Of a DNA stretch of 64,000 nt, positions 8,662 to 63,200 are shown piece after piece. The notes below the pieces were generated by a model, which searched no databases, had not been told where the DNA came from, and worked only from the letters and a program-made list of their open reading frames with translations. Position numbers and translations under genes: made by a program. Source of the DNA: an uncultured Anaerolineales bacterium (GTDB taxonomy: Bacteria; Chloroflexota; Anaerolineae; Anaerolineales; UBA11858); contig CAZTWV010000012.1 of assembly GCA_964618295.1 (NCBI GenBank), positions 929-64,928 on the forward strand, written 5' to 3'. The first letter of the stretch is position 1. Each line of letters begins with the position of its first letter.

Positions 8662-9018
8662 ATGCTTACTTATTGGGTTTACATTGGAATCTTTCTGGTT
8701 TTTTCAATTATCGTTCCTACAATTGCGGTCGCCCTCCCTCTTTTAGTTGCACCCAAAAAACCAAGTGCAAGAAAAGAAGAGGTATACGAATGTGGGATTG
8801 AAACCCGGGGCAGTATCCGGGTCCAATTTAAATCACAATACTATCTTTATGCCCTGATGTTTTTAATTTTTGACATCGAAACAGTGTTCCTGTTTCCCTG
8901 GGCGGTTGCTTTAGATCAGCTCCCATTATTTGCACTGATTGAAGGTTTGATTTTTATTATTATCCTTTTTGCTGGCTTGATTTACGCCCTCAGGAAAGAT
9001 GCTCTGGTTTGGGCCTGA
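8662..9018 (+). CDS. nuoA: NADH-quinone oxidoreductase subunit A
   Basis: 118 aa, 3 TM, YECG...F...YYLYALMFLIFDIETVFLFPWA signature; AAGGAGAG RBS. Confidence 0.92.
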   Translation: MLTYWVYIGIFLVFSIIVPTIAVALPLLVAPKKPSARKEEVYECGIETRGSIRVQFKSQYYLYALMFLIFDIETVFLFPWAVALDQLPLFALIEGLIFIIILFAGLIYALRKDALVWA

Positions 9019-9070
9019 GATTCATTATTTTTGTTTAGGTCAGTAATTTGAGACGATTGAGGAGTACTGC

Positions 9071-10273
9071 ATGACAGATTTATATTCGCTGATTGAAACC
9101 TGGATAATGAACGTTCTTATGGGGTGGGGGCTATCGGAAGGCATCACCCTTTTTATTCTCCAAGCGCTGGGAAGCATCGTAGTGATTGTCATCGCTTTTT
9201 TATTCGTGATATTCTTGATCTGGGTGGAAAGGAAATTAGCCGGAAGAATTCAGGACCGTTTTGGTCCAAACCGGGCTGGTCCATTTGGATTATTCCAGAG
9301 TTTCGCTGATATCATAAAAATTTTCACCAAAGAATACATAACACCGCAAGGCGCAGATCGCGGGCCTTATAACATTGCTCCCGTTCTGGCTTTGGGTGCA
9401 GTGCTGGCAATTTGGGCCGTTTTCCCGCTGGCAATCAATGTCCTGGGAGCGGATTTACATGTCGGTGTACTCTACATAGTTGCCATTGGGGCTTTCGGGA
9501 TCCTGGCAATTTTAATGGCTGGCTGGTCCTCCAATAACAGGTATGCTTTATTGGGAGCTTCAAGAGCCGTGGCTATGCTGGTTTCATATGAAATTCCAAT
9601 GGTTGTCGCTCTCCTTGTTCCCGTGATCCTGGCAAATTCAATGAAGCTGTCTGTGATTATTGAGGCGCAGCGCCCCTGGTTTATTTTTACTGCCCCCCTG
9701 GCAGCTTTGATATTTTTCATTACCTCGATGGCAGAAATTGGAAAAGCTCCCTTTGATCTCCTGGAAGCAGAATCTGAGCTGGTCGCTGGCTATCATACAG
9801 AGTACTCCGGGATGAAATTTGGGATGTTTTATGTCGCGGAATTCCTCCATCAATTCACTGTCGGAGCTTTGTTCAGCATTTTCTTCCTTGGGGGCTGGAC
9901 CGGTCCATTTGCGGAGCAGTGGCCCATTCTGGGAGTCTTCTACTTTTACGCCAAAGCCTTGTTGATCTATTTGATCATTTCCTGGATCCGGTTGTCTTTG
10001 CCCCGGATCCGAATTGATGAAATGCTGAACCTGAACTGGAGGTTTTTGATTCCCCTGGCTTTTGTCAATTTGATCAGTGTGGCAACTGCCGACCGGTTAA
10101 TGATCGAATTTGGAACTGCAAAATGGTTGTATGTCCTGGTGATGTTTGGGCTTAATATTCTCCTGCTCTGGATTGGATTGTCCCTGGCAGATAGTTTGAG
10201 CGCCAAAGTGGAGCGGGAAAAATTCCCACCACGCCCTGTAGCCGTCCCTCCAGGAACGGAGTTGAAAGGATAA
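9071..10273 (+). CDS. nuoH: NADH-quinone oxidoreductase subunit H
   Basis: VERKLAGRIQDRFGPNRAGPFGLFQSFADIIK and APFDLLEAESELVAGYHTEYSGMKF signatures. Confidence 0.92.
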   Translation: MTDLYSLIETWIMNVLMGWGLSEGITLFILQALGSIVVIVIAFLFVIFLIWVERKLAGRIQDRFGPNRAGPFGLFQSFADIIKIFTKEYITPQGADRGPYNIAPVLALGAVLAIWAVFPLAINVLGADLHVGVLYIVAIGAFGILAILMAGWSSNNRYALLGASRAVAMLVSYEIPMVVALLVPVILANSMKLSVIIEAQRPWFIFTAPLAALIFFITSMAEIGKAPFDLLEAESELVAGYHTEYSGMKFGMFYVAEFLHQFTVGALFSIFFLGGWTGPFAEQWPILGVFYFYAKALLIYLIISWIRLSLPRIRIDEMLNLNWRFLIPLAFVNLISVATADRLMIEFGTAKWLYVLVMFGLNILLLWIGLSLADSLSAKVEREKFPPRPVAVPPGTELKG

Positions 10274-10335
10274 TCAAGCTGCAGAGAAGATCACTGCAGC
10301 CTGTATAGGATTTAGCTGCTGGTAAGGAAACTACT

Positions 10336-45750: not shown

Positions 45751-46476
45751 ATGTCACAATCTTACAGACCCGGTCGATCAAGCAAAGGACAGAGTTTTGT
45801 TGAGCTGGCAATCGTCCTGCCGCTCTTGCTGTTTTTGCTGATTGGCTTTGTTGAAATTGGCGGGATTATATATCATTATCTATCCATGCTGGACGTTGCC
45901 CGGGAGGCAGCTCGTTTTGCGTCAGAACATGATTACCGGGTTCTGAATGCACCAGGTACGGGATTGCCCGACAGTGCCTGCACCGATACGGATGTCCATT
46001 ATTTCTATGACACCGCCTGTGTGATCATCGGGGCTGGCTTCAACCCGGATCTGCAGCTGGATCCCGCTACAGATGATGTCGCGATTTCTGTTTTCACCGT
46101 CAACAATAACACGGTAACCCATCGCTGGCCGAATGATGGGGATGGGGTCTGGTCGCTTTATTCAGAGAACTGGACCAAGAATTGTGATGGGAGCCTCAAC
46201 TCGACCACGCCGTTCATGACCAATGCGGAGATGGCAAGTATCTATGCTTTACCTACACCAACCTTTGGTCCAGGCACACCCACTCCTGGGGCGGGAACTC
46301 CAATACCAGCAGCACCTGCAGATAAAGGAGCAGTTGTTGTGGAAGTTTATTACTGTCATGAGCAGATTTTGAACCTGCCGGTTTTGTCTTCAATAATACC
46401 AAACCCAGTCCCGCTGCATGCTTTTGCGGTGATGCCAGCCCCGGCGGCTGCACCCACTCCCACACCGCTTCCTTAA
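45751..46476 (+). CDS. TadE-like pseudopilin-type protein
   Basis: The N-terminus KGQSFVELAIVLPLLLFLLIGFVEIGG has a G/xxxxE prepilin-peptidase-type site and a TadE hydrophobic helix. It is followed by ARFAS. The C-terminus is Pro/Thr/Ala-rich. Confidence 0.72.
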   Translation: MSQSYRPGRSSKGQSFVELAIVLPLLLFLLIGFVEIGGIIYHYLSMLDVAREAARFASEHDYRVLNAPGTGLPDSACTDTDVHYFYDTACVIIGAGFNPDLQLDPATDDVAISVFTVNNNTVTHRWPNDGDGVWSLYSENWTKNCDGSLNSTTPFMTNAEMASIYALPTPTFGPGTPTPGAGTPIPAAPADKGAVVVEVYYCHEQILNLPVLSSIIPNPVPLHAFAVMPAPAAAPTPTPLP

Positions 46477-46488
46477 GGTGGATTAGAT

Positions 46489-48072
46489 ATGAAGAAAATC
46501 ATCTCCAGGGTATTCCAAAAAATCACAAACGGTTCAGAACAGGAACGCGGCCAGGCGGTCGTGATCACTGCGGTTGCCTTTCTGGCCATCCTGGCTTTTG
46601 CCGGCTTGGTGACAGACGCTGGATCGTTGTATTTGAATTTCACCCGGCTCAAGAGAGGGCTGGATGCTGCAGCGGTGGCAGCCGCAAATAATATTAAAGA
46701 TTCATCTCTTCCAGCTGCCCAGCGCAGCGCAAACATCCGGGAGGCTGCCCGGGAGATGCTGGCTTTGAATGATATTGAGGGAATTTACACCCTGCGGACC
46801 TTTACCTGTGATGACGGCGGCTTGCCGGCTGATTTTGCTGCGATGTGTCCTGCGCCAACTGAAGATCAGCGCAAGCTGGCATATGTGGAAGCTACTCAGA
46901 ACAGTCCGGTTTATTTTTTACAGCTGTTCGGAATCGATGACATTCCTATCACTACCCATTCGGTGGGAGAAGCAGCTTCGATTGATCTCGTCCTGGTGAT
47001 CGACACCTCGGAATCGATGGGGTCCAACACTGCAGGATATGATGCTAATTTTGATCCGGCAGCCTGCAATGCGGCTAATAACTGCCAACCGCTGCGCCAG
47101 GCGAAAGATGCAGCAAAATCGATGATTAACAAGCTGTTTGACGGCTACGATCGGATTGCAATTGTCACCTACGATTTCAGCGCGACGATTCATGACCCGG
47201 ATTTGTCATCAGCTACCGTTCTGGAATCTGATCACACAGCGGTCAAAGGCGCGATTGATGCCATCACTTTGCATGATGATGTCAATTTGAATGATATTAT
47301 CGCCACCGGTAAGAATCCTATCAACGGGGAGTTAAACCCGCTGGATATCAACGGGGATGGCACCTATGTGGGGGGTGTTCCCCAGAACTTTGGGGATTCA
47401 ATTGTTACTACCTGCACCGGCTGTGGAATGCGGGTTGCCGGGAATATCCTGAGTGATCAGGGGAGGGTAGATTCTGTCTGGGTCATTGTGCTGCTGTCGG
47501 ATGGGGCGACCAATGTCAGTGATCTGCCGGACTCGAGCGATGTGAACAACCCGGTACCTGCTGGATACATTAACGGCTTTTGCGGTGGAGACCCCGGGTT
47601 TCCAAATCCAAACCGGATGTGGGATACTCCCTGGTGCACGGACAGCGATCCCTCCACCCGGCACTGCGGCCCTTTCCATGCAGCAGCTGGGGAATGCCCG
47701 CCCGGAGCCACCTGGGTCGGAAACAACACTCCTCCTTATGATGCTGAGGATTACGCCCGGGATATCACCGACCGGGTTGCGCTGCTCGGGTCCACCAATC
47801 CCAGTGAGCCGGTTGGAGGCGAGGAAATTGCCATATATACCATTGGGTTGGGAGTAGCTGCATCCCCACCGGATTATGATGGAGAGGAACTGCTGCGCTA
47901 CATGGCTAATATCGGGGATGATAATTTCAGGAATCCAGCTGCCTCCGACCCCTGCGATGGAGCGGCTCCACAGACATCCTGCGGGCAGTATTATTATGCC
48001 CCGGATGCGACCTATCTGACCCAGATTTTTGAGAAAATCGCCGGCAGCATTTTCACCCGGATCAGCCAGTAA
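46489..48072 (+). CDS. TadG-like protein with a von Willebrand factor A domain
   Basis: N-terminus ERGQAVVITAVAFLAILAFAGLVTDAGSLY (TadG/Flp-assembly-like). vWA MIDAS motif VLVIDTSESMG. AAGGTGGA RBS. Confidence 0.72.
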   Translation: MKKIISRVFQKITNGSEQERGQAVVITAVAFLAILAFAGLVTDAGSLYLNFTRLKRGLDAAAVAAANNIKDSSLPAAQRSANIREAAREMLALNDIEGIYTLRTFTCDDGGLPADFAAMCPAPTEDQRKLAYVEATQNSPVYFLQLFGIDDIPITTHSVGEAASIDLVLVIDTSESMGSNTAGYDANFDPAACNAANNCQPLRQAKDAAKSMINKLFDGYDRIAIVTYDFSATIHDPDLSSATVLESDHTAVKGAIDAITLHDDVNLNDIIATGKNPINGELNPLDINGDGTYVGGVPQNFGDSIVTTCTGCGMRVAGNILSDQGRVDSVWVIVLLSDGATNVSDLPDSSDVNNPVPAGYINGFCGGDPGFPNPNRMWDTPWCTDSDPSTRHCGPFHAAAGECPPGATWVGNNTPPYDAEDYARDITDRVALLGSTNPSEPVGGEEIAIYTIGLGVAASPPDYDGEELLRYMANIGDDNFRNPAASDPCDGAAPQTSCGQYYYAPDATYLTQIFEKIAGSIFTRISQ

Positions 48073-54032: not shown

Positions 54033-56405
54033 GTGATCAAACGATCTCTTTTAATCTCTTGGATGATCCTGCTCCTTCTGGGAGGGTTTCTCTGGTGGGG
54101 ATTTGCCCCGGTTCAAATCGGGGGACCGGTGGGGTATGTGATTGTCAATGGCAGCAGCATGGAGCCCGGGTTTTCAAAAGGGGATCTGGTGCTGACCCGG
54201 AGTGAGATCCAACCTCAACCTGGGACGGCTGTTGTCTATCAGCAGCCGCAGATAGGTATGATTTTCCATCGGGTGATTGATATTCAAAATGGATCCTATC
54301 TCCTTCAAGGTGACAATAATGACTGGGTGGATTCTTATCAGCCTGCTGAAGACGAGATCATCGGCGGCTATTGGCTCCGGATTCCATCTGGCGGTACAAT
54401 CATTACAAGGTTACGAGAGCCGCTAAACTTTTCATTGCTCAGCCTGGGGATTGTTGGCGTAATAATTTCACTTTTCTATTTTCAAAAACAAGATATGGCA
54501 AAAAAACGTAAGAACCGGGTTAAAAATCCAGCACATGCCTCAGAGAAGAAATCAGACACGAGAGCAGGAGAATTCCGTCAGGATCTGCTCCTTATGCTGG
54601 GTGTTCTGGCGCTGGCTGCTGTTATTTTGGGATTATTTGCGTTCCTACAGCCCCTGGAGCAGGAAGTTTCGGAAGAATTTCAATATCAGCATCAGAGTGA
54701 ATTGAATTACAGTGCTCAAGATTTGAGCGGAATTTATGATTCCTCACAGGTGATGACCGGGCAGCCGGTTTACCTGGATTTGACCTGCCGGGTTGATCTG
54801 AATATTGATTACCGCTTGACCGCCCCCGCTATGACCCCCGGCAATCAGGCTTTGTTTACAGGGTCTTACCGGATCAGTGCTCTGCTGGAGGATGTGGACG
54901 GCTGGCAGCGTACCATCCCTCTGGAAGATTTCAGAAGTTTTTCAGGGACATCTTTTTCTGAAGCGGCGGAGCTGGATGTGTGCGAAATCAGGGATTTGAT
55001 CCTCGAAAAAGAACAAAAAACCGGCACCAGCAACCGCTGGTACACGCTTTTTATCAGACCGGAGATCAATTACCAGGGACAGATCAGCGAGCTGCCGCTT
55101 GAAGGTGTGTTTCGACCGGAATTTCAATTTCAAATTGATACCTCATTGATGCGCCTGCCTGGCGAGGAAGAGCAGCTGACGATCATTGAAGAAGGAGCGC
55201 TGGAAAAAACCCGGATTTTGCCCAACACACTCTCAATATTTGGTTTGAGCCTGGAAGTAAAGACAGCACGCTGGACAGCTCTCTCAGTATTAATTATTTG
55301 TCTCGCAGGAGGGATCTGGCCCCTGGTGAGTCTTTACAGGGATTGGAAAAGTTCCGATGCTTCCTGGATCCAGGTTCAGTATCATCCTATGCTGGTTGAC
55401 GTCGCCTTTGGGAGTCCAGCCCGAAATGCGGAGCAAATTGTCCAGGTAGCTTCTTTTCAGGATTTATCCAAGATGGCGGAGCGCTATGGTGCGATGATAT
55501 TGCATGAATCCCGGGGACATCTCCACCGGTATTCAATTCAAGATGAAGGTACAGTCTATCAGTACAGTCTGGACGGCATCCGGGACCACAGCCTGTTTTC
55601 TGATTTGAACGATTTCAAAATAGCCTTAAACACCGCTCTGGAAGAGGATCAATTTGAACTGTACTATCAACCAATTGTAGATTTAAGAAGTAAACAGGTG
55701 ACCGGAATCGAAGCTTTTGTTCGCTGGAATCACCCCCGCTTGGGTCTGCTTTACCCTGCCGAGTTTATTCAGCTCGCAGAAGAAAACGGATTAATCCCGG
55801 TAATAGACCGCTGGGTGATCGAAAGCGGCTGCCGGCAGCTCAATGAATGGGGAGAATTTGGTCTGCCTCTGGTACCCTTATCTATCAATATTTCCCCAAA
55901 CACCATTTTGGATGATAACTTTTCGAATCATATCGAAAACGCTGTGGTTCAAAGCAGCTGTAATCCCGATTTTCTGCAGCTGGAAATCAACCGCTCGAAT
56001 CAGGTTTTCAGGGATAAAACGATCCAGCAGAGACTGCTCGATCTAAGAAGATTAGGGGTGCGGTTGGCTCTTGATAATTTTGCGACAGATGCGGCCAATC
56101 AAATTGACCAGGTTTCCAGGATGCCTATTCAGAGTTTAAAGATAGACCGGAGCATCATGCAGGGGATAACAGGAGATCAATCAAATTTACGTTTGATCAA
56201 CGCGGTTGTGAAAATGGCCCGCAGTTTGCAGATTGAGGTAATTGCTCAGGGTGTGGAGAATAATGAACAGATTGCCCTCCTGGAAAAACAGGAAATCTCC
56301 CTGGCCCAGGGTTATTTCCTGGGAGATCCAGTCCCGGCCCGGGAGATGGGCTGGAAACTGGGAAAAACCCTTCCCCAGGGTTCTGGTAAAGAGCTGGAAG
56401 AATAA
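54033..56405 (+). CDS. Fusion protein: archaeal/ER-type (SipW-like, S26B) signal peptidase + multi-pass membrane module + EAL domain
   Basis: Residues 1-125 carry a TM anchor plus GSSMEPGFSKGDLV (Ser42), IFHRV (His79) and QGDNNDWVDS (Asp94). TM helices lie at about 135-150, 185-205 and 415-435, with a KKRKNRVK loop between the first two. Residues 535-775 form the EAL domain (ELYYQPIVDL...GIEAFVRWNHP...SINISP...LKIDRS...QGYFLG). Confidence 0.8.
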   Translation: MIKRSLLISWMILLLLGGFLWWGFAPVQIGGPVGYVIVNGSSMEPGFSKGDLVLTRSEIQPQPGTAVVYQQPQIGMIFHRVIDIQNGSYLLQGDNNDWVDSYQPAEDEIIGGYWLRIPSGGTIITRLREPLNFSLLSLGIVGVIISLFYFQKQDMAKKRKNRVKNPAHASEKKSDTRAGEFRQDLLLMLGVLALAAVILGLFAFLQPLEQEVSEEFQYQHQSELNYSAQDLSGIYDSSQVMTGQPVYLDLTCRVDLNIDYRLTAPAMTPGNQALFTGSYRISALLEDVDGWQRTIPLEDFRSFSGTSFSEAAELDVCEIRDLILEKEQKTGTSNRWYTLFIRPEINYQGQISELPLEGVFRPEFQFQIDTSLMRLPGEEEQLTIIEEGALEKTRILPNTLSIFGLSLEVKTARWTALSVLIICLAGGIWPLVSLYRDWKSSDASWIQVQYHPMLVDVAFGSPARNAEQIVQVASFQDLSKMAERYGAMILHESRGHLHRYSIQDEGTVYQYSLDGIRDHSLFSDLNDFKIALNTALEEDQFELYYQPIVDLRSKQVTGIEAFVRWNHPRLGLLYPAEFIQLAEENGLIPVIDRWVIESGCRQLNEWGEFGLPLVPLSINISPNTILDDNFSNHIENAVVQSSCNPDFLQLEINRSNQVFRDKTIQQRLLDLRRLGVRLALDNFATDAANQIDQVSRMPIQSLKIDRSIMQGITGDQSNLRLINAVVKMARSLQIEVIAQGVENNEQIALLEKQEISLAQGYFLGDPVPAREMGWKLGKTLPQGSGKELEE

Positions 56406-56408
56406 GAT

Positions 56409-56858
56409 ATGGTCAGGAGAAATCTCAGAAACATTTTGCTGGTTCTGCTGCTCGGAATCGGAATGGTAGCGCTGATCAGTGTTTTTTCAGCTGTAGCGGC
56501 CACCAACACAGTGTCAGAATCCCGGGCAGATCTGAACTCCGCAGCGATTGATGGAAACGATCTCAAACCGGATGCCTGCAGTGGAATCAATATTCAAAAT
56601 ATTGTAGACGTTGGAGCCGGTGAAACCGGGACTGATGCTAACGACCTGATCCTGGGAACTGCCGGGAATGACTTGGTCATCCGGGGCGGAGCCGGGGATG
56701 ACTGCATCCTGGGTGGAGGGGGAAATGAAGGCTTCATCATTTTCCTTGGAATCTTCGGGGAAGAAGGGGATGATGTCTTAATTGGCGGTCCCGGATTTGA
56801 TGTCTGCCAGGGCGGTGGAGGATCAAACACATTTGTGGAATGTGAGGTTACCAGATAA
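56409..56858 (+). CDS. Small secreted protein with RTX-like Gly/Asp repeats and a SipW-type-like signal peptide
   Basis: ALISVFSAVAATNTVSESRADLN resembles the signal region of the two small proteins. LILGTAGNDLVIRGGAGDDCILGGGGNE and GEEGDDVLIGGPGFD are haemolysin-type Ca-binding-like nonapeptides. Starts 3 nt after the upstream stop. Confidence 0.62.
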   Translation: MVRRNLRNILLVLLLGIGMVALISVFSAVAATNTVSESRADLNSAAIDGNDLKPDACSGINIQNIVDVGAGETGTDANDLILGTAGNDLVIRGGAGDDCILGGGGNEGFIIFLGIFGEEGDDVLIGGPGFDVCQGGGGSNTFVECEVTR

Positions 56859-57229
56859 TTAATCTCACTGGAGTTCCTGTGAATTTCTTAAGGAACCGGA
56901 AAAAAATAATTATTATAATAATAATTGAAACAAAACCAGTGGTTAAGGAAATTTTCAGCTGAATCGATTTTATTTCTCTCTTTAAATATATCCTTTCAAG
57001 GGTAGAAAGGATTGTTTTATCGATATGATGGATGTTGAATGAGTCTGATAAAGGTAAAATGAAAAGAAAAACTAGATTAACACGGAAGAGTAAGAAAAAA
57101 CAGGTCCAGACTCAAGAAAAACCTGGAATTTAAACACCGAAAGTGGTCTTGATATGCTTCGGAGTTGAATTCTGATAATTTTATTAAACTTTTTGCGGCG
57201 GGACAGTCCGAGAAAAATGGTGATAAAAA

Positions 57230-60200
57230 ATGAAAGTACAATTTTCTAGAATTCAACCTGGAAAAAAAATGCCCAAAATCCTGCCAAACCATCGTTTGGT
57301 ATTTGCTTTAGTAAGTTTCTTTTTAGCGCTAATTTTGGTCCCGGTTGTGATTGTTTTTGCTGCGACGGTACCGGCGGAGATGAACATTCAATTCACACCG
57401 ATTGCAATTGCATCGGGGGGGACCTCGACATTGAAAGTTTCAGTCTTCAACTTGAATGCTAATCCGCTTACTAATGCGACCTGGACGGACACTTTTCACC
57501 CTGATATAGCAATAGCAGATCCTCCCAACATCAACGTCCAGAACTGCGGCAGCTATTCTTTGACTGATGGTGCTGGAGGTTTAATCGAAGCGGGGGACAG
57601 TTCCATCAAGCTGACCGGTGCTACCGTGCCGGCCCAACTACCCAGCGGGGTTCCCGGGGAATGTTACGTAGAGGTGGATGTCACTTCAACGACGCCCGGC
57701 AATTTGATCAACTCTATACCTGAGAATCATCTAGTATCAGAAACCATTGATCCTGATGGTGGTGGATCCGTGCCGATTACCAATACCACCCCGGCCAGTG
57801 CCACGCTGAATGTGATCGGGGTTGAATCACCCTCGCTGAGCAAGGCCTTCGCGCCCAACACCGTTTTTGTCGGTCAGACCAGCACGCTGACAATTAACAT
57901 TTTTAACAATGATCAGGATTACCCCTTGACCGAAGTGACCATGTTTGATGAGCTGCCGACTGCTGGAAATGAAGATATTAAAGTGGCCAGCCCGCTGAGT
58001 GCCTCATTGAACGGCTGCGGCGAAGGATCCGGCGCAGAGTTGACTGATGAGAATGGGGATCCGCTGGCTCCCGATGACACCACCATTAAGTTGGTCAATG
58101 GCACCATCGCTCCGGATTCGAACTGCACGATCACGGTCGATGTGGTCTCAATGGTGCAGGGTGCTTATGTAAATGTAATACCCAAGGATGCCCCGCTGGA
58201 TGGTTCAATCCAAACCCGGCAGGGTGTTAGCAATGAGGATCCGGCTGATGATCAGCTCAACGTCCAGGCTTTTATCATTGACAAAGAATTTGCCGAGACG
58301 AAGATAGCTGCCGGTGAGCCCACCTTGGTGAGCATTGAGATCGTCAATAACGCCACCATTGATTATACCGGCGCTGCTTTGAACGATATCCTGCCTGAAG
58401 GGCTTGTTTTCGAACCGGGGAGCGCATCACTCAGCTGCACCGATGGATCTTCTACGGCAGCTTTCGCGTATTCAGATGATACAAATCCCAATGATACCCT
58501 GGAAATGACAGGCGGAGTCCTGCCCGCAGGGACAACCTGCACAATTACGGCCACGGCCGAAGCTTTAACTTCGGTCACGGTTGGTACCTACACCAATAAT
58601 ATCCCCATCGGAGCTCTAAGTACTGTTGAAGGGGCGACAAACCATAATTTGGCTTCAGCGGATATTGAGGTGGATACTCTAGGGATTACAAAAGATTTTG
58701 CTGAAGTTACCATTCCATCGGGCGGCACCAGCGAATTGACCATCACAATTTCTAACCCGTTTTCGAAGGACTATACGGATGCTGATGGTGGGGATCCGCT
58801 CCTGGAAGATGTTTTGCCTGCCGAGTTTGAATTCGATACCAGTGTAATACCTGGTTTACAGGGAACTGGTTGTACAGGAGACCTTTCGATTGGTGGAACT
58901 AATAATAATACTCTTTTCTTGGATGGCGGTACCTTGCCGGCGAATACAGTCTGTACAATCACGGCCACTGTCAAGGCGGAATCAACAGGCAATCCGGCTG
59001 ATCCAGGCGATTACGTAAATGAAATCGCCGCAGGAAAAATAAACACAGAAGAGGGGGCGACAAACGCCTCTAAGGCCAGCGATACCATTTCCGTTCAATC
59101 ACTTGGACTGACAAAAGACTTTGATCCCAATACAATTCCCGTCGGGGGAACCAGCACACTGACCATTGAGATCATTAACAATGGGACGGATACATTCACA
59201 GGGGCAGATCTTTCGGATGAGATAACCGATACCTCATTTTACTTTGAAGCTGGAACAGCCCAAACGACCTGTATCCCAAATGGTGTCGTAGATATTTCTG
59301 CGGACTCCCAGACTATTTCTTTGACCAATGGCACGATTCCTCCGGGCGGCTGCACCATCATTGTGGACGTGACCACGGATGATAATCAACTGCCCACCAG
59401 TTACGAAAACATTATTGAAGCGGGTGATCTCATCACAGATCAAGGTGATACAAATCCGGCGGATGCCAGTGACATCATCAGCGTGGAAACGGTCACGATC
59501 ACGAAAAGTTATGGAACCGGCACGATTTCCTATCCGGAAGTCAGCACTCTGACGATCACGATTTCGAATCCAGCCAACGGCCAGGCCTTGACTAATATGA
59601 GCCTGACCGACACCTTGCCGGATGACCTGGTCATTGCAACTCCTGCAAACGCAAGCACAACCTGTAATGATTCAACACCGCCTACACCTACCTTGACAGC
59701 CGAAGAAGGGACTAGGGTAATCGAGTTATCCGATGGTTCTTTAGCGGCAGGCAGTGGGTCCTGCTCGATTCAGGTGGATGTTACCGCTTTATCGGAAACC
59801 GTTTCGGGTGATTACCCTAATACGATTGGCCAGGGGGATTTAACCTCAGGTCCTGCCGGTAATGGCCCGACAAATGGCAATACGAATACTGCCACCCTGG
59901 AAGTTGAAGCCCTTGAAGTCAGCAAAGATTTTCTGTATGAGAGCTTTCAGGCGGGGGACACCAGCAGCACCAATCCGCTGACGATCACCCTGACCAATCC
60001 CACCTCTTTGGATTATACAAACGTAAATATAACAGACAGCTTGCCAACTTCACCGGATACAGATCTGGAATTTGTTTTGGGGACGGAAAATACGGACTGC
60101 GGTGGGACTGTTTCTCTAACTGGTTCTTCACCACCCCCATATCGAACGATTGGATTGGCGGGAGGGACTCTCCCTGCAAATGGCAGCTGCACTATCACCG

Positions 60201-63200
60201 TTGATGTGACCACGGATACAGACGCAACCGCCGGTTCTTATACTAATACGATCTACCCGGATGATATAACCACCACGGTGGACGGCGTGGATGGACCTAC
60301 CATTCCGGAAGATGTAACCGCTGATGTTGAGACCTATCCATTTCAACGGGGAGTGGAAGCCGCCAAGTCGTTTACGCCTTCAAGCATTGATTTTTTCGAT
60401 TATGACGGTGATACATCCACATTAGAATTGGAGTTCACCGCGCCTCCGGACACGGATTTGACCGATTTTTCCTTTACGGATGTCCTGCCGGACAATGGAG
60501 ACGGCAGTGTTTACCTGGCTAGTCCTATCAGCGCGAATCTGAGCGGCTGTGGAGCGAATGCTGAATTAACTGACGGAAGTGGGAATCCCCTGGGTCCGGA
60601 TGACACTACAATTCAAATGATTAACAGCACTATTCTTAAAGGAGAAACCTGCACCGTCTCCGTGGATGTCACCAGCAATACCGGGTCTACTCCTGGTGTT
60701 ATCTATACCAATACCGTTACACCTGATAATGTCAGTAATAACGAGGACCGCAATCCACCTGGCAATCTGACAGCCAACTTAACGGTCACGACCCCCAGCA
60801 CGCTGACCATGGCGAAGGACTTCGATCCCAACATCGTGGGCCCCGAGGGCCTTTCAAGATTGACCATCACCCTTGAGAACGCAAGTACAACCGAGCTTAT
60901 TAATGTGGATCTGGATGATTTCCTCCCTGGCGATACCTCGGATGGGGTTGTGATTGCGGCTAATCCCAACCCCACCACCACCTGCGATAGTGGTGTCATC
61001 ACTGCGGCTCCAGGTACACAAACCCTTCACATGGAGGACGGCACGATTCCGGCTTCGGATGGAACTGTAAACGGCATTTGTACTATTAATGTCAATGTTC
61101 AGGGTAAGACCACCGATGGCACCAATCCTGCCACCTATACCAATACCATTCCGGTTGCGAATGTTGTTGCGACACTTGCCGGAACGCCCTCGACGATGAA
61201 TCCCCAGGATCCGGCCAGCGATGACCTCACGGTCAAAGATCTTGACCTGGAAATTGTCAAAGGGTTTGATCCTGTACTGGTCTATGGTGGTGCCGACTCG
61301 GAGATGAGTATTACCCTCAGGAATCCGAATGCAGAAGCAGAGTTAATCGATATTACTTTTACTGATAATATGCCTGCTGCGGATATGGTTCTGGTCGATC
61401 CGCCCAATTTTGACCCTTCAGACTGCGGTCCGGATGCTGAATTGATCAGGATTGATCAGAGCACATTTGAATTCAGCGGCGGCTATCTGGCCGCAGGTGA
61501 AGAATGCACCATCACCCTCAATACGAACATGACGGTCAACGGCAACCGCACCAATACGATTCCTGCTGAGGCGGTTACGACCACGAATGGAGCCACCAAC
61601 AAAACACCTACTGATGCTACCCTGACCAATCTGGCCAGCGTCAGTGTCAGCAAGAGTTTCGAACCCAATCCCATCGCTGCCGGGCTGGGCAGTTATTCAA
61701 TTCTGACCATTGAAATTCGATCAACTGAGTCAGTTAGGATTACAAGATTGGGTTTGATTGATACCCTTCCTGCCGGGCTGCAGGTTGCAGACCACGTCAG
61801 CGGTCCCGCTCCCGCACCGACCAATGGCTGCGGTGGAAACCTTTCTGCCCCGGTGAGTGCGACAACCATCCAGCTTACTGACGGTGAACTTGACATTGGA
61901 TTTGAAAAGTGTTCATTAACCATTCCGGTAACCGGGGCTGAACCAGGTCAATATACCAATCAGATTCCCCAGGGCTCGATAACCAATGACGAAGGTATTA
62001 CCAACATTCAATCGACTGAAGATACCCTGACCCTGACTCCTTACAGCCTGGGCAATCGGGTTTGGTACGATACGGATAATGATGGCATTTTCGATCCAGC
62101 AGAGGTAGGTATCTCTGGAGTGCGTGTTGAGTTGTATCGAGACACAAACAGCAACGGGGTTTATGATCCGGGAGTGGACGAAGCTGTTGAGGATGGCTCT
62201 GGGAATGCTCGGTTTGAAGTCACAGACCCGGATGGCTACTACCGTTTCGATGATCTGGGCGCAGATGACTATCTGGTTCTGATTTCCGGGGATAATTTTG
62301 ATTCCGGGAATCCGCTGGAGGGGTATTACAGCAGCGGCACCACACTGGCGGATGATGGAACCATCAGCGACAGCATTGGGCCGGATCCGGATGATGATGC
62401 CGATAATGAAGATAACGGTACAACCACGGCGACATCCGGAGCAGTGGATTATGTCTCGGCCCAGGCTGTCACCCTGGGGCCAGACCAATCTGAGCCAACC
62501 GATGATGATGATCCAACCACGAACCCCGAAACTGGCGAAGCGGCCAATGACCAGAGCAACCGCACAGTGGACTTCGGCTTCTACACTATCACCCTGGGCA
62601 ACCTGGTTTGGAATGACGGGGATAACAGCGGAGCAGTCAATGGATCTGAAGCAGGGATAGACGGCGTTGACCTCGAGCTCTGGACCGCGGATCAGAATAC
62701 CCTGCTGGACACTGTGACCACCGGGGGGGGAGGCGGCTACAGCTTCACTGGATTGGCGGAAGGGAATTATATCGTCCGCATTCCTGCTTCAGAATTTCAA
62801 GGCACCGAACCTTTACGCGGATTTGCCTCCAGTACCGGGAACGGTGTCCCCGCTCCGGACGGAGATCTTAACACCACTGATTCAGACGATAACGGTTCTG
62901 AAGTGACCCCACCACGCCTTGGGTTAGGGGGATACATTCAATCTGCGGAAATAACCCTCACACCTGGAAATGAGGCCTCCTTTGACAACAGTACAGGAAC
63001 GACCAGCGAACCGCGGATTGATTTCGGCGTTTATCCATTCCCACAGCAGGAGAAGTCGTTTACTGGCAGCGATCAGGTTTTCACGGCTGGTCTGGATGTC
63101 GCTATCGGGGAGATTCTCACCTACCAGGTTACCTTTACAGTGCCGCCCGGCGCGATCACCGGAGTGACATTGACCGATACCATGGACCGGGGTCTGGTGT

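Follow-up and report, generated by a model that had tools for sequence, protein, structure and literature searches.

A candidate c-di-GMP receptor domain of the EAL family fused to a SipW/archaeal-type signal peptidase in an uncultured Anaerolineales bacterium

The DNA examined here (hereafter the window) is a stretch of 64,000 nucleotides from an uncultured Anaerolineales bacterium (contig CAZTWV010000012.1 of assembly GCA_964618295.1, positions 929 to 64,928). Its forward strand carries, at 54033-56405, a gene with a GTG start codon for a protein of 790 amino acids in which a signal peptidase, DUF5305 and a C-terminal EAL domain are joined, and which stands between two small genes for putative secreted proteins. 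An earlier note on this sequence had drawn attention to the EAL domain (55635-56357, in frame with the open reading frame and equal to residues 535-775) as a possible receptor for cyclic di-GMP (c-di-GMP) with a degenerate catalytic core. The attached signal peptidase, absent from that note, is the more interesting point. The reading favoured here, with moderate confidence, is that the EAL domain is a sensor of c-di-GMP which does not hydrolyse it and whose signal is relayed to the dedicated signal peptidase, tuning the maturation of the flanking pre-proteins. We infer that the domain binds c-di-GMP, most likely without a useful rate of hydrolysis and probably with one metal ion, that the signal runs from the EAL domain outwards, and that the peptidase acts on the flanking proteins; c-di-GMP would then probably control the cutting or release of these two neighbouring secreted proteins.

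Identity, register and fold of the EAL domain

Residues 531-766 matched the Pfam EAL family (PF00563) with E = 1.5e-64 and 218.1 bits (cut-off 31.3) over 234 of the 236 profile positions. For the register of the motifs, phmmer was run against all PDB sequences and the HMMER pairwise alignments were used. Five active EAL structures were matched at E = 1e-44 to 1e-48 (PA0575, 5m3c; BifA, 8arv; TBD1265, 2r6o; MorA, 4rni/4rnh). In these alignments the motifs of the active EALs and of the window protein pair as gEAlvRW/iEAfvRW, lsvNis/lsiNis, lElEitE/lqlEinR, lKiD/lKiD, vaEGiE/iaQGvE and QG/QG, and at loop 6 lalDDFGTGYsslsyl is aligned with lalDNFATDAanqidqv, the window sequence being one residue longer. 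An AlphaFold2 (AF2) model, built on 34 homologues, has a predicted local distance difference test score (pLDDT) of about 80-93 over the domain and superposes on TBD1265 with bound c-di-GMP (3n3t; TMt 0.89, root-mean-square deviation 1.9 A) and on MucR (5m1t; TMt 0.92). Residues 531-766 belong to the EAL superfamily (PF00563) and are predicted to adopt its modified TIM-barrel fold.

The substitution pattern and register, which the earlier note had read by eye, are confirmed by the five HMMER alignments with PDB sequences and by the AF2 superposition on 3n3t and 5m1t, and its residue numbers (E560, N619, K703, Q739) agree with the translation of 54033-56405. A wrong register is ruled out, the five alignments and the family alignment being in agreement, and chance is not an issue; the family alignment shows these substitutions again. 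The domain and its signature residues are as follows.

55623..56330, forward strand: EAL domain, predicted cytoplasmic, residues 531-766 (Pfam, PDB alignments, AF2 superposition)
55668..55724, forward strand: Q546 (YQP), E560 (EAF motif, metal 1) and R564 (ExLxR), kept; aligned to TBD1265, invariant in 65/65 orthologues
55887..55889, forward strand: N619, metal-1 ligand, kept; 65/65 orthologues
55983..55994, forward strand: E651-I-N-R654, first Glu of ExxE kept (metal 1), second Glu replaced by Arg (PDB alignment)
56073..56111, forward strand: D681-N682-FATDAANQIDQ, first Asp kept, second Asp (metal 2) replaced by Asn, loop 6 replaced (PDB alignment)
56139..56147, forward strand: K703-I-D705, catalytic Lys and Asp of KxD kept; Lys in 65/65 orthologues, D705 at least 90% conserved
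56247..56258, forward strand: Q739-G-V-E742, general-base/metal-2 Glu replaced by Gln, second Glu kept (PDB alignment)

Residues kept and replaced in the active site

Among known EALs, the closest to the domain in sequence and structure are active class I enzymes (TBD1265, RocR, MorA, MucR, BifA and PA0575), with 32-34% identity, E = 1e-41 to 1e-48 and TM-scores of 0.87-0.92. They have in common with the window protein the EAL Glu, the Arg of ExLxR, the Asn, the first Glu of ExxE, the first Asp, the Lys, the second Glu of EGVE and the Gln. As the earlier note had read them, EAF (Glu560), NIS (Asn619), LKID (Lys703) and QG are kept in the PDB alignment. The metal-1 ligand set of class I phosphodiesterases is complete (E560, N619, E651 and D681), and the catalytic Lys and conserved Gln that these enzymes require are present as K703 and Q759. 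From EAL structures, we take Q546, E560, R564, N619, E651, D681, K703, E742 and Q759 to be the contacts to c-di-GMP and metal 1.

Unlike the active class I EALs, the domain lacks the second Glu of ExxE, the second Asp, the general-base Glu and loop 6 DFG(T/A)GYSS, all of them class I requirements. LEINR stands in place of LEITE, which puts R654 at the position of the second Glu of ExxE (RocR E268); this residue of RocR is said, after work by Rao et al. in 2008/2009, to anchor loop 6. DDFGTGYSSL is also replaced, as had been noted, with N682 where active EALs have the second, metal-2-binding Asp of DDFG, and NFATDAANQ, with its one-residue insertion, in place of loop 6. AQGVE takes the place of AEGVE, and Q739 was aligned to TBD1265 E703 and RocR E352 at the general-base/metal-2 position. 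The metal-binding and general-base residues concerned were not found conserved after alignment; their losses hold in the PDB alignments.

Metal 2 is bound by the second Asp of DDFGTG together with the Glu of EGVE, which is Glu217 in PA3825 (PMC5301497). As cited in PMC12943098, TBD1265 E703A (equivalent to RocR E352) is inactive and the second Glu, E706, dispensable, and loop 6 DFG(T/A)GYSS is needed for both activity and dimerisation. The three residue positions concerned are ones where mutation abolishes or impairs activity in model enzymes. Since R654, N682, Q739 and the replaced loop 6 fall at positions with such cited catalytic roles, the metal-2/general-base half of the site is lost, and the metal-1 half together with the substrate-binding residues Q546 and R564 is kept. 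With the three changes (Glu to Arg, Asp to Asn, Glu to Gln) the site has three negative charges fewer and one positive charge more, as would be expected if a second divalent cation were no longer bound and a phosphate of c-di-GMP were held directly.

Conservation and selection across the family

A protein search returned 34 clusters of full-length homologues sharing the architecture of the window protein, and a scan of one genome per GTDB species gave 65 EAL-bearing orthologues, all in Chloroflexota and mostly in Anaerolineae. Cultured carriers include Anaerolinea thermophila, Ornatilinea apprima, Levilinea saccharolytica, Thermanaerothrix daxensis and T. solaris. Five residues, Q546, E560, R564, N619 and K703, are invariant in 65/65, and E742 and Q759 are found in 64/65 and 63/65. 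Three catalytic positions vary freely over the same orthologues, mainly among E, R, Q and K at 654 (E in 36, R in 14, others in 15), among N, D, A and S at 682 (N in 38, D in 12, others in 15) and among E, V, Q and K at 739 (E in 20, V in 16, Q in 15, others in 14). The canonical loop 6, DFG(T/A)GYSS, occurs in 0/65. Within the clade of the window protein (at least 40% identity), EINRSN ... DNFATDxANQINQ ... AQGVE is fixed, including the R at 654.

The ratio of non-synonymous to synonymous substitution rates (dN/dS) was computed against the closest homologue (L081, 88% identity) and was 0.064 for the EAL domain, 0.117 for the peptidase domain and 0.031 for the cytoplasmic DUF5305 domain. Mean family identity is 52% for the EAL domain and 54% for the peptidase domain. 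A decaying EAL domain is ruled out by its dN/dS and by the conserved replacement motif. The binding residues are thus strictly constrained and the catalytic ones relaxed or re-fixed in a functional domain; catalytic losses with the contact residues retained (Q546, E560, R564, N619 and K703 in all 65) are the pattern of a receptor-type EAL, to judge from the sequences. In the census of Seshasayee et al., one EAL-only protein in four is degenerate, and of these degenerate proteins 91% have lost the binding site as well (PMC2952852). Relative to that census the window EAL, with its binding residues kept and its catalytic core degenerate, is a minority case.

Two kinds of irregularity were seen among the orthologues. 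A Black Sea Anaerolineales metagenome-assembled genome (MAG) has two tandem peptidase-DUF5305-EAL genes (L011:2342-4930 and L011:6829-9381), both of them preceded by a small gene of their own. Two overlapping frames make up the orthologue in two MAGs from long reads (L015:7968-9065 and 8998-10323; L018:7962-9050 and 8968-10317), which represents either a frameshift/pseudogene or a homopolymer sequencing error.

HD-GYP sister proteins and c-di-GMP genes near the cassette

Residues 1-520 (peptidase-DUF5305) were searched against 1.84 billion representatives, and 935 relatives (representative clusters) of this scaffold were found at E = 1e-30 or better. A Pfam scan of 46 of the longer proteins among the top 150 relatives identified an EAL domain at the C-terminus of 29, an HD-GYP-type HD domain (PF13487) in six and an FGE-sulfatase domain in two. 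The HD-GYP domain (P0144, P0146, P0178, P0157, P0213 and P0271) occupies the same C-terminal position as the EAL domain; other sister proteins have no C-terminal domain. The motifs of P0144 are canonical (HDVGK ... HHERWDGTGYP), and those of P0213 (HDWGL ... HRERWDGSGYP) and P0178 (HKIGL ... QHERWDGTGQP) are degenerate. Three loci of the six HD-GYP proteins were fetched (L082:3165-5420, L083:865-2994 and L084:3448-5661; proteins P0144, P0146 and P0178), and all have the three-gene cassette and the AANTV motif described below. Directly upstream of one of these cassettes lies a gene for a PAS-GAF-GGDEF diguanylate cyclase (L082:848-2530), and GGDEF genes lie at most 8 kb from the cassette in A. 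thermophila (L056:23-1057), O. apprima (L037:13215-14099) and T. daxensis (L061:16583-18253). That two unrelated c-di-GMP-specific folds occur at one position, and that both tolerate the loss of catalytic residues, argues that recognition of c-di-GMP is the property under selection. In the two FGE-sulfatase relatives, P0257 and P0278, a formylglycine-generating enzyme-like domain stands in place of the nucleotide-sensing domain.

The swap also bears on two other explanations. The EAL domain might bind no nucleotide at all and act in dimerisation or as a protein-protein scaffold like YdiV or YcgF/BluF, for example in oligomerisation of the peptidase or recruitment of a partner. The 91% of degenerate EAL-only proteins that have lost the binding site act without c-di-GMP (PMC2952852), and loop 6, which is involved in EAL dimerisation, has here been rebuilt as a new conserved motif. 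A scaffold role does not, however, predict an HD-GYP domain, an unrelated fold specific for c-di-GMP, at the same position, and the Q of YQP, the E and R of ExLxR and the N, D, K, E and Q of the site are invariant in a family that diverges to about 30% identity; we regard this explanation as improbable. The domain might alternatively sense another ligand, namely pGpG, another cyclic dinucleotide or a metal ion. The EAL domain of FimX binds pGpG (PMC3527489), the phosphate/metal-2 region is no longer the usual one given R654 and the new loop 6, and the downstream gene encodes a Ca-binding RTX protein. Against this, all the signature residues by which c-di-GMP-specific EALs typically contact base and ribose are kept, and both the HD-GYP swap and the GGDEF genes nearby favour c-di-GMP itself; another ligand is considered very improbable.

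Comparison with LapD and FimX

The earlier note had likened the domain to LapD and FimX. LapD of Pseudomonas fluorescens is, like the window protein, a transmembrane protein with a cytoplasmic degenerate EAL domain; that of LapD binds c-di-GMP, and through it LapD exerts inside-out control of the periplasmic proteolysis of a secreted or surface protein (PMC3032553). LapD has the order HAMP-GGDEF-EAL, sequesters LapG and is no protease itself, whereas the window protein has neither HAMP nor GGDEF and carries its signal peptidase in cis; the EAL domain of LapD has the motif KVL and is metal-free, whereas the metal-1 site of the window domain is intact. Membership of the LapD family is rejected on the NCBIfam model NF045673 (76.6 against a cut-off of 1020) and on the lack of HAMP and GGDEF; the LapD EAL structure 3pjt was matched at E = 3.6e-14. 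FimX of P. aeruginosa and Xanthomonas resembles the window EAL in that several catalytic residues and DDFGTG are gone, and it binds c-di-GMP with high affinity (PMC3527489, PMC5301497). The AF2 model of the EAL domain superposes on FimX 4fok with TMt 0.84, and FimX sequences were matched at E = ~1e-17 to 1e-18 (P. aeruginosa) and 4e-15 (the Xanthomonas homologue 4foj), compared with 1e-48 for active phosphodiesterases. Unlike the Peptidase_S24-DUF5305-EAL protein of the window, FimX is soluble, has the order REC-PAS-GGDEF-EAL and is a regulator of type IV pili, and its metal ligands are lost more completely (EVL motif, no metal in 3HV8); FimX family membership is ruled out on architecture and scores. 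In the window EAL, unlike in LapD and FimX, the metal-1 site is complete and the catalytic Lys present. The comparison therefore stands as a functional analogy and fails as kinship, with matches of 1e-14 to 1e-18 to LapD and FimX against 1e-48 to active phosphodiesterases.

Architecture and predicted topology of the fusion protein

The N-terminal 129 residues match the archaeal/endoplasmic reticulum (ER)-type signal peptidase I (NCBIfam TIGR02228, sigpep_I_arch; 56.5 against a cut-off of 51.85). S42 (GSSMEP), H79-R80, D94 and D100 are conserved in every family member covering the position, and the peptidase is predicted to be of the Ser/His (not Lys) type with its catalytic residues intact. 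An orthologue of SipW is ruled out (SipW Bacillus model, 26.8 against a cut-off of 190). Pfam DUF5305 was matched by residues 302-511 (33.2 against a cut-off of 29), and the AF2 layout of this part is that described in bioRxiv 10.64898/2026.01.04.697558. The segments of the protein other than the EAL domain are listed below.

54033..56405, forward strand: whole gene, 790 amino acids, signal peptidase I + DUF5305 + EAL fusion (Pfam Peptidase_S24, DUF5305 and EAL; TIGR02228)
54114..54419, forward strand: SipW/archaeal-type signal peptidase domain, predicted extracytoplasmic, residues 28-129, between transmembrane (TM) helices TM1 and TM2
54156-54158, forward strand: predicted catalytic S42
54267-54269, forward strand: predicted catalytic H79, with D94 and D100 downstream
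54486..54581, forward strand: Lys/Arg-rich loop between TM2 and TM3, predicted cytoplasmic, residues 152-183, low pLDDT
54648..55256, forward strand: DUF5305 beta-sandwich, predicted extracytoplasmic, residues 206-408 (Pfam; AF2 strands 209-408, pLDDT ~90)
55353..55577, forward strand: DUF5305 alpha/beta domain, predicted cytoplasmic, joining TM4 to the EAL domain, residues 441-515 (AF2)

AF2 and hydropathy place four TM helices at about 5-27, 133-151, 184-205 and 414-434. The loop between TM2 and TM3 has nine Lys or Arg within residues 158-182, so that the positive-inside rule places the N-terminus inside, the peptidase and the DUF5305 beta-sandwich outside, and the DUF5305 alpha/beta domain (441-515) and the EAL domain inside. 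This alpha/beta domain is the most conserved segment of the protein, at 60% mean identity.

DUF5305 has been described as an accessory protein of the dedicated signal peptidases in loci for TasA-like, Tafi and AbpX filaments (PMC11821415; bioRxiv 10.64898/2026.01.04.697558). The latter, a 2026 preprint, cites E8MZY1 of A. thermophila as a fusion of signal peptidase and DUF5305 and mentions no EAL domain. NCBI names the A. thermophila orthologue WP_298010412.1 (800 amino acids) 'signal peptidase I', the sole label that databases give to such proteins. No description of a fusion of signal peptidase with EAL or HD-GYP was found in the searchable literature, where both the EAL fusion and the modularity of EAL, HD-GYP or no C-terminal domain are undescribed.

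The three-gene cassette and its putative substrates

The fusion gene lies between two small genes, and a third gene related to the first of them is located further upstream.

53555..53938, forward strand: upstream cassette gene, 127 amino acids, small secreted beta-sandwich protein, putative substrate, signal ...YGFA-ASNTV
56409..56858, forward strand: downstream cassette gene, 149 amino acids, secreted protein with RTX-type Ca-binding repeats (Pfam HemolysinCabind), putative substrate, signal ...SAVA-ATNTV
50490..50909, forward strand: third paralogue of the 127-amino-acid protein, 139 amino acids, ...YGFASANTL

Homologues of the 127-amino-acid gene were identified directly upstream in 74/80 related loci, and of the 149-amino-acid gene directly downstream in 77/80. 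In both families a hydrophobic N-terminal segment is followed by a conserved A-A-[A/S/T]-N-T-V, present in 71/93 homologues of the former protein and 56/81 of the latter. This synteny and common signal motif suggest that the peptidase is a dedicated one and the flanking proteins its cognate substrates. The three proteins encoded at 53555-53938, 56409-56858 and 50490-50909 all have a hydrophobic N-terminus and A-A/S-A/S/T-N-T-V/L, a family-specific signal/cleavage-site motif seen over about 80 loci.

In the AF2 model of the 127-amino-acid protein, which has high confidence, a signal helix is followed by a disordered linker and a six-strand beta-sandwich, the mature part being 97 amino acids long. 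The disordered N-terminal segment is conserved (AGEGxGxISGY), and together with the beta-sandwich it would fit a donor-strand subunit. Against Pfam, the protein gave two sub-threshold chance hits only (Wzz, E = 0.088; DUF6318, E = 0.12).

Relatives that have no EAL domain carry the same cassette, and the EAL module is therefore regulatory and not essential. In a neighbour-joining tree of the N-terminal 515 residues, a tree too crude for counting gains and losses, EAL-less forms interleave with EAL forms. An EAL-less cassette whose peptidase has 39% identity to the window protein is located on a contig of 3.9 kb (L032; CAXMRF010000120.1) binned in a 'Nitrosomonadaceae' MAG; as all other matches are Chloroflexota, this assignment is probably a binning error.

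A dedicated Ser-His peptidase of ER/archaeal type beside few secreted substrates (putative in the window) is shared with SipW-TasA of Bacillus, TafD/TafG of the Haloarcula tafi and the AbpX loci; in loci of these types DUF5305, where it occurs as an accessory, is a partner of the peptidase or fused to it. TafD is required for the processing of TafA (PMC11821415). For neither putative substrate, the 97-amino-acid mature beta-sandwich or the RTX-repeat protein, was similarity to TasA, AbpX, TafA or a solved structure detected. Unlike the window protein, none of the SipW-TasA, Tafi and AbpX systems has been described with a nucleotide-sensing domain on the peptidase.

Taken together with the topology, these data suggest how such a protein could work. 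The EAL domain would serve as the second-messenger input of a four-pass membrane protein, in which a c-di-GMP-dependent change in the EAL domain, probably dimerisation, would reach the outer face by way of TM3/TM4 and the DUF5305 domain that is conserved on the cytoplasmic side, and would there tune how the two flanking pre-proteins, with their dedicated 'AANTV' signal, are cleaved or released.

Receptor or phosphodiesterase

A receptor role is the best reading of the domain because of the degenerate core, the loss of loop 6, the invariant contacts, the purifying selection and the replacement by HD-GYP. Several observations weigh against this reading or parts of it. The window EAL is far closer to active phosphodiesterases (best matches at E ~1e-48) than to known receptors, and it keeps the full metal-1 site, the catalytic Lys (K703) and the Asp of KxD (D705), with E742 and Q759 also intact. 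The changes of Asp to Asn and Glu to Gln are isosteric; Asn and Gln may still ligate a metal, and weak or conditional hydrolysis is possible. Three orthologues (L037, L028 and L039) keep all ten signature catalytic residues (ENEEDDKEEQ), and since some HD-GYP variants also look intact (canonical HDxGK/HHE/GYP, as in P0144), the ancestral or family-wide role could be enzymatic. No GGDEF gene or diguanylate cyclase was found in the 64-kb window, and the EAL-less cassettes indicate that the EAL domain is not needed for the core function. As for the output, the 127-amino-acid protein gave no significant Foldseek match to solved folds (best E = 0.15) and no PDB profile match, and its link to donor-strand filaments is unproven.

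A number of these points would also fit a domain that is still a c-di-GMP phosphodiesterase, whether slow, single-metal or conditional, in a protein signalling from outside to inside: the extracytoplasmic peptidase/DUF5305 module would report substrate load or the state of the envelope and would control local degradation of c-di-GMP. FimX, although degenerate, still shows weak turnover (PMC3527489). The general-base Glu is nevertheless gone, and its replacement inactivates TBD1265 (E703A, as cited in PMC12943098); the second Asp, a ligand of metal 2, is gone as well (PMC5301497), Arg stands in place of the Glu that stabilises loop 6, and a canonical loop 6 is absent throughout the 65 orthologues. 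Because positions 654, 682 and 739 vary while the binding residues are invariant, selection appears relaxed on catalysis and not on binding. An enzymatic role for the window protein is accordingly considered unlikely, and the receptor reading is retained.

Surroundings of the cassette

Downstream of the cassette, an open reading frame of more than 2250 amino acids (57227-64000, running off the end of the window) encodes a giant surface protein or adhesin with about 12 DUF7933 repeats, DUF11 repeats and domains of the SdrD B-like/Cna-B kind. The hydrophobic segment at its N-terminus runs out in ...VFAATVPAEMN, which resembles the signal motif of the cassette. Upstream are four consecutive genes (45751-46476, 46489-48072, 48152-50299 and 51031-53283), three of them TadE-like (241 amino acids and the unusually large 715 and 750) and the fourth encoding a Tad/VWA protein of 527 amino acids; the 750-amino-acid protein contains linkers rich in Pro and Thr and matches PA14 weakly. 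Neither a Tad ATPase nor a prepilin peptidase was found within the 64-kb window. Linkage of the TadE-like/Tad genes to the cassette is confined to the closest clade (1-10/80 loci, depending on the gene), as is that of the giant TadE-like proteins upstream and the adhesin downstream (4-10 loci by gene). Positions 1-45000 hold ordinary chromosomal housekeeping and envelope biosynthesis genes, among them those for a HAMP histidine kinase, glycosyltransferases, FemAB-like proteins, complex I subunits, ATP synthase a/b-delta, a Mur ligase, a photolyase, a Rieske oxygenase and a DUF255 thioredoxin. Over most of its length the window has a positive GC skew.

Implications

A degenerate EAL domain is ordinary in itself, and the unusual part here is the output, the attached signal peptidase. 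The known targets of c-di-GMP effectors are transcription, polysaccharide synthases, pili and flagella and, in the one case of LapD, indirectly a periplasmic protease. It is proposed tentatively, at a confidence short of that given to the receptor reading, that the window protein represents the first second-messenger-gated type I signal peptidase, in which c-di-GMP would act directly on a SipW-like peptidase/DUF5305 complex via interchangeable EAL and HD-GYP modules. If this holds, c-di-GMP would decide, at the step of signal-peptide cleavage, whether two co-encoded surface or matrix proteins mature and are released. The protein would then represent a c-di-GMP effector of a new class, and secretion would have a new, post-translational control point. 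The peptidase-DUF5305 family is large and conserved (935 relatives, EAL fusions in at least 65 species), and the cassette, with three genes and one ligand, is a compact and testable system. The Anaerolineae grow as filaments and form granules and biofilms in digesters and sediments, and their surface biology is, to our knowledge, almost unstudied; in these bacteria the cassette may place the maturation of two surface or matrix proteins under the control of c-di-GMP.

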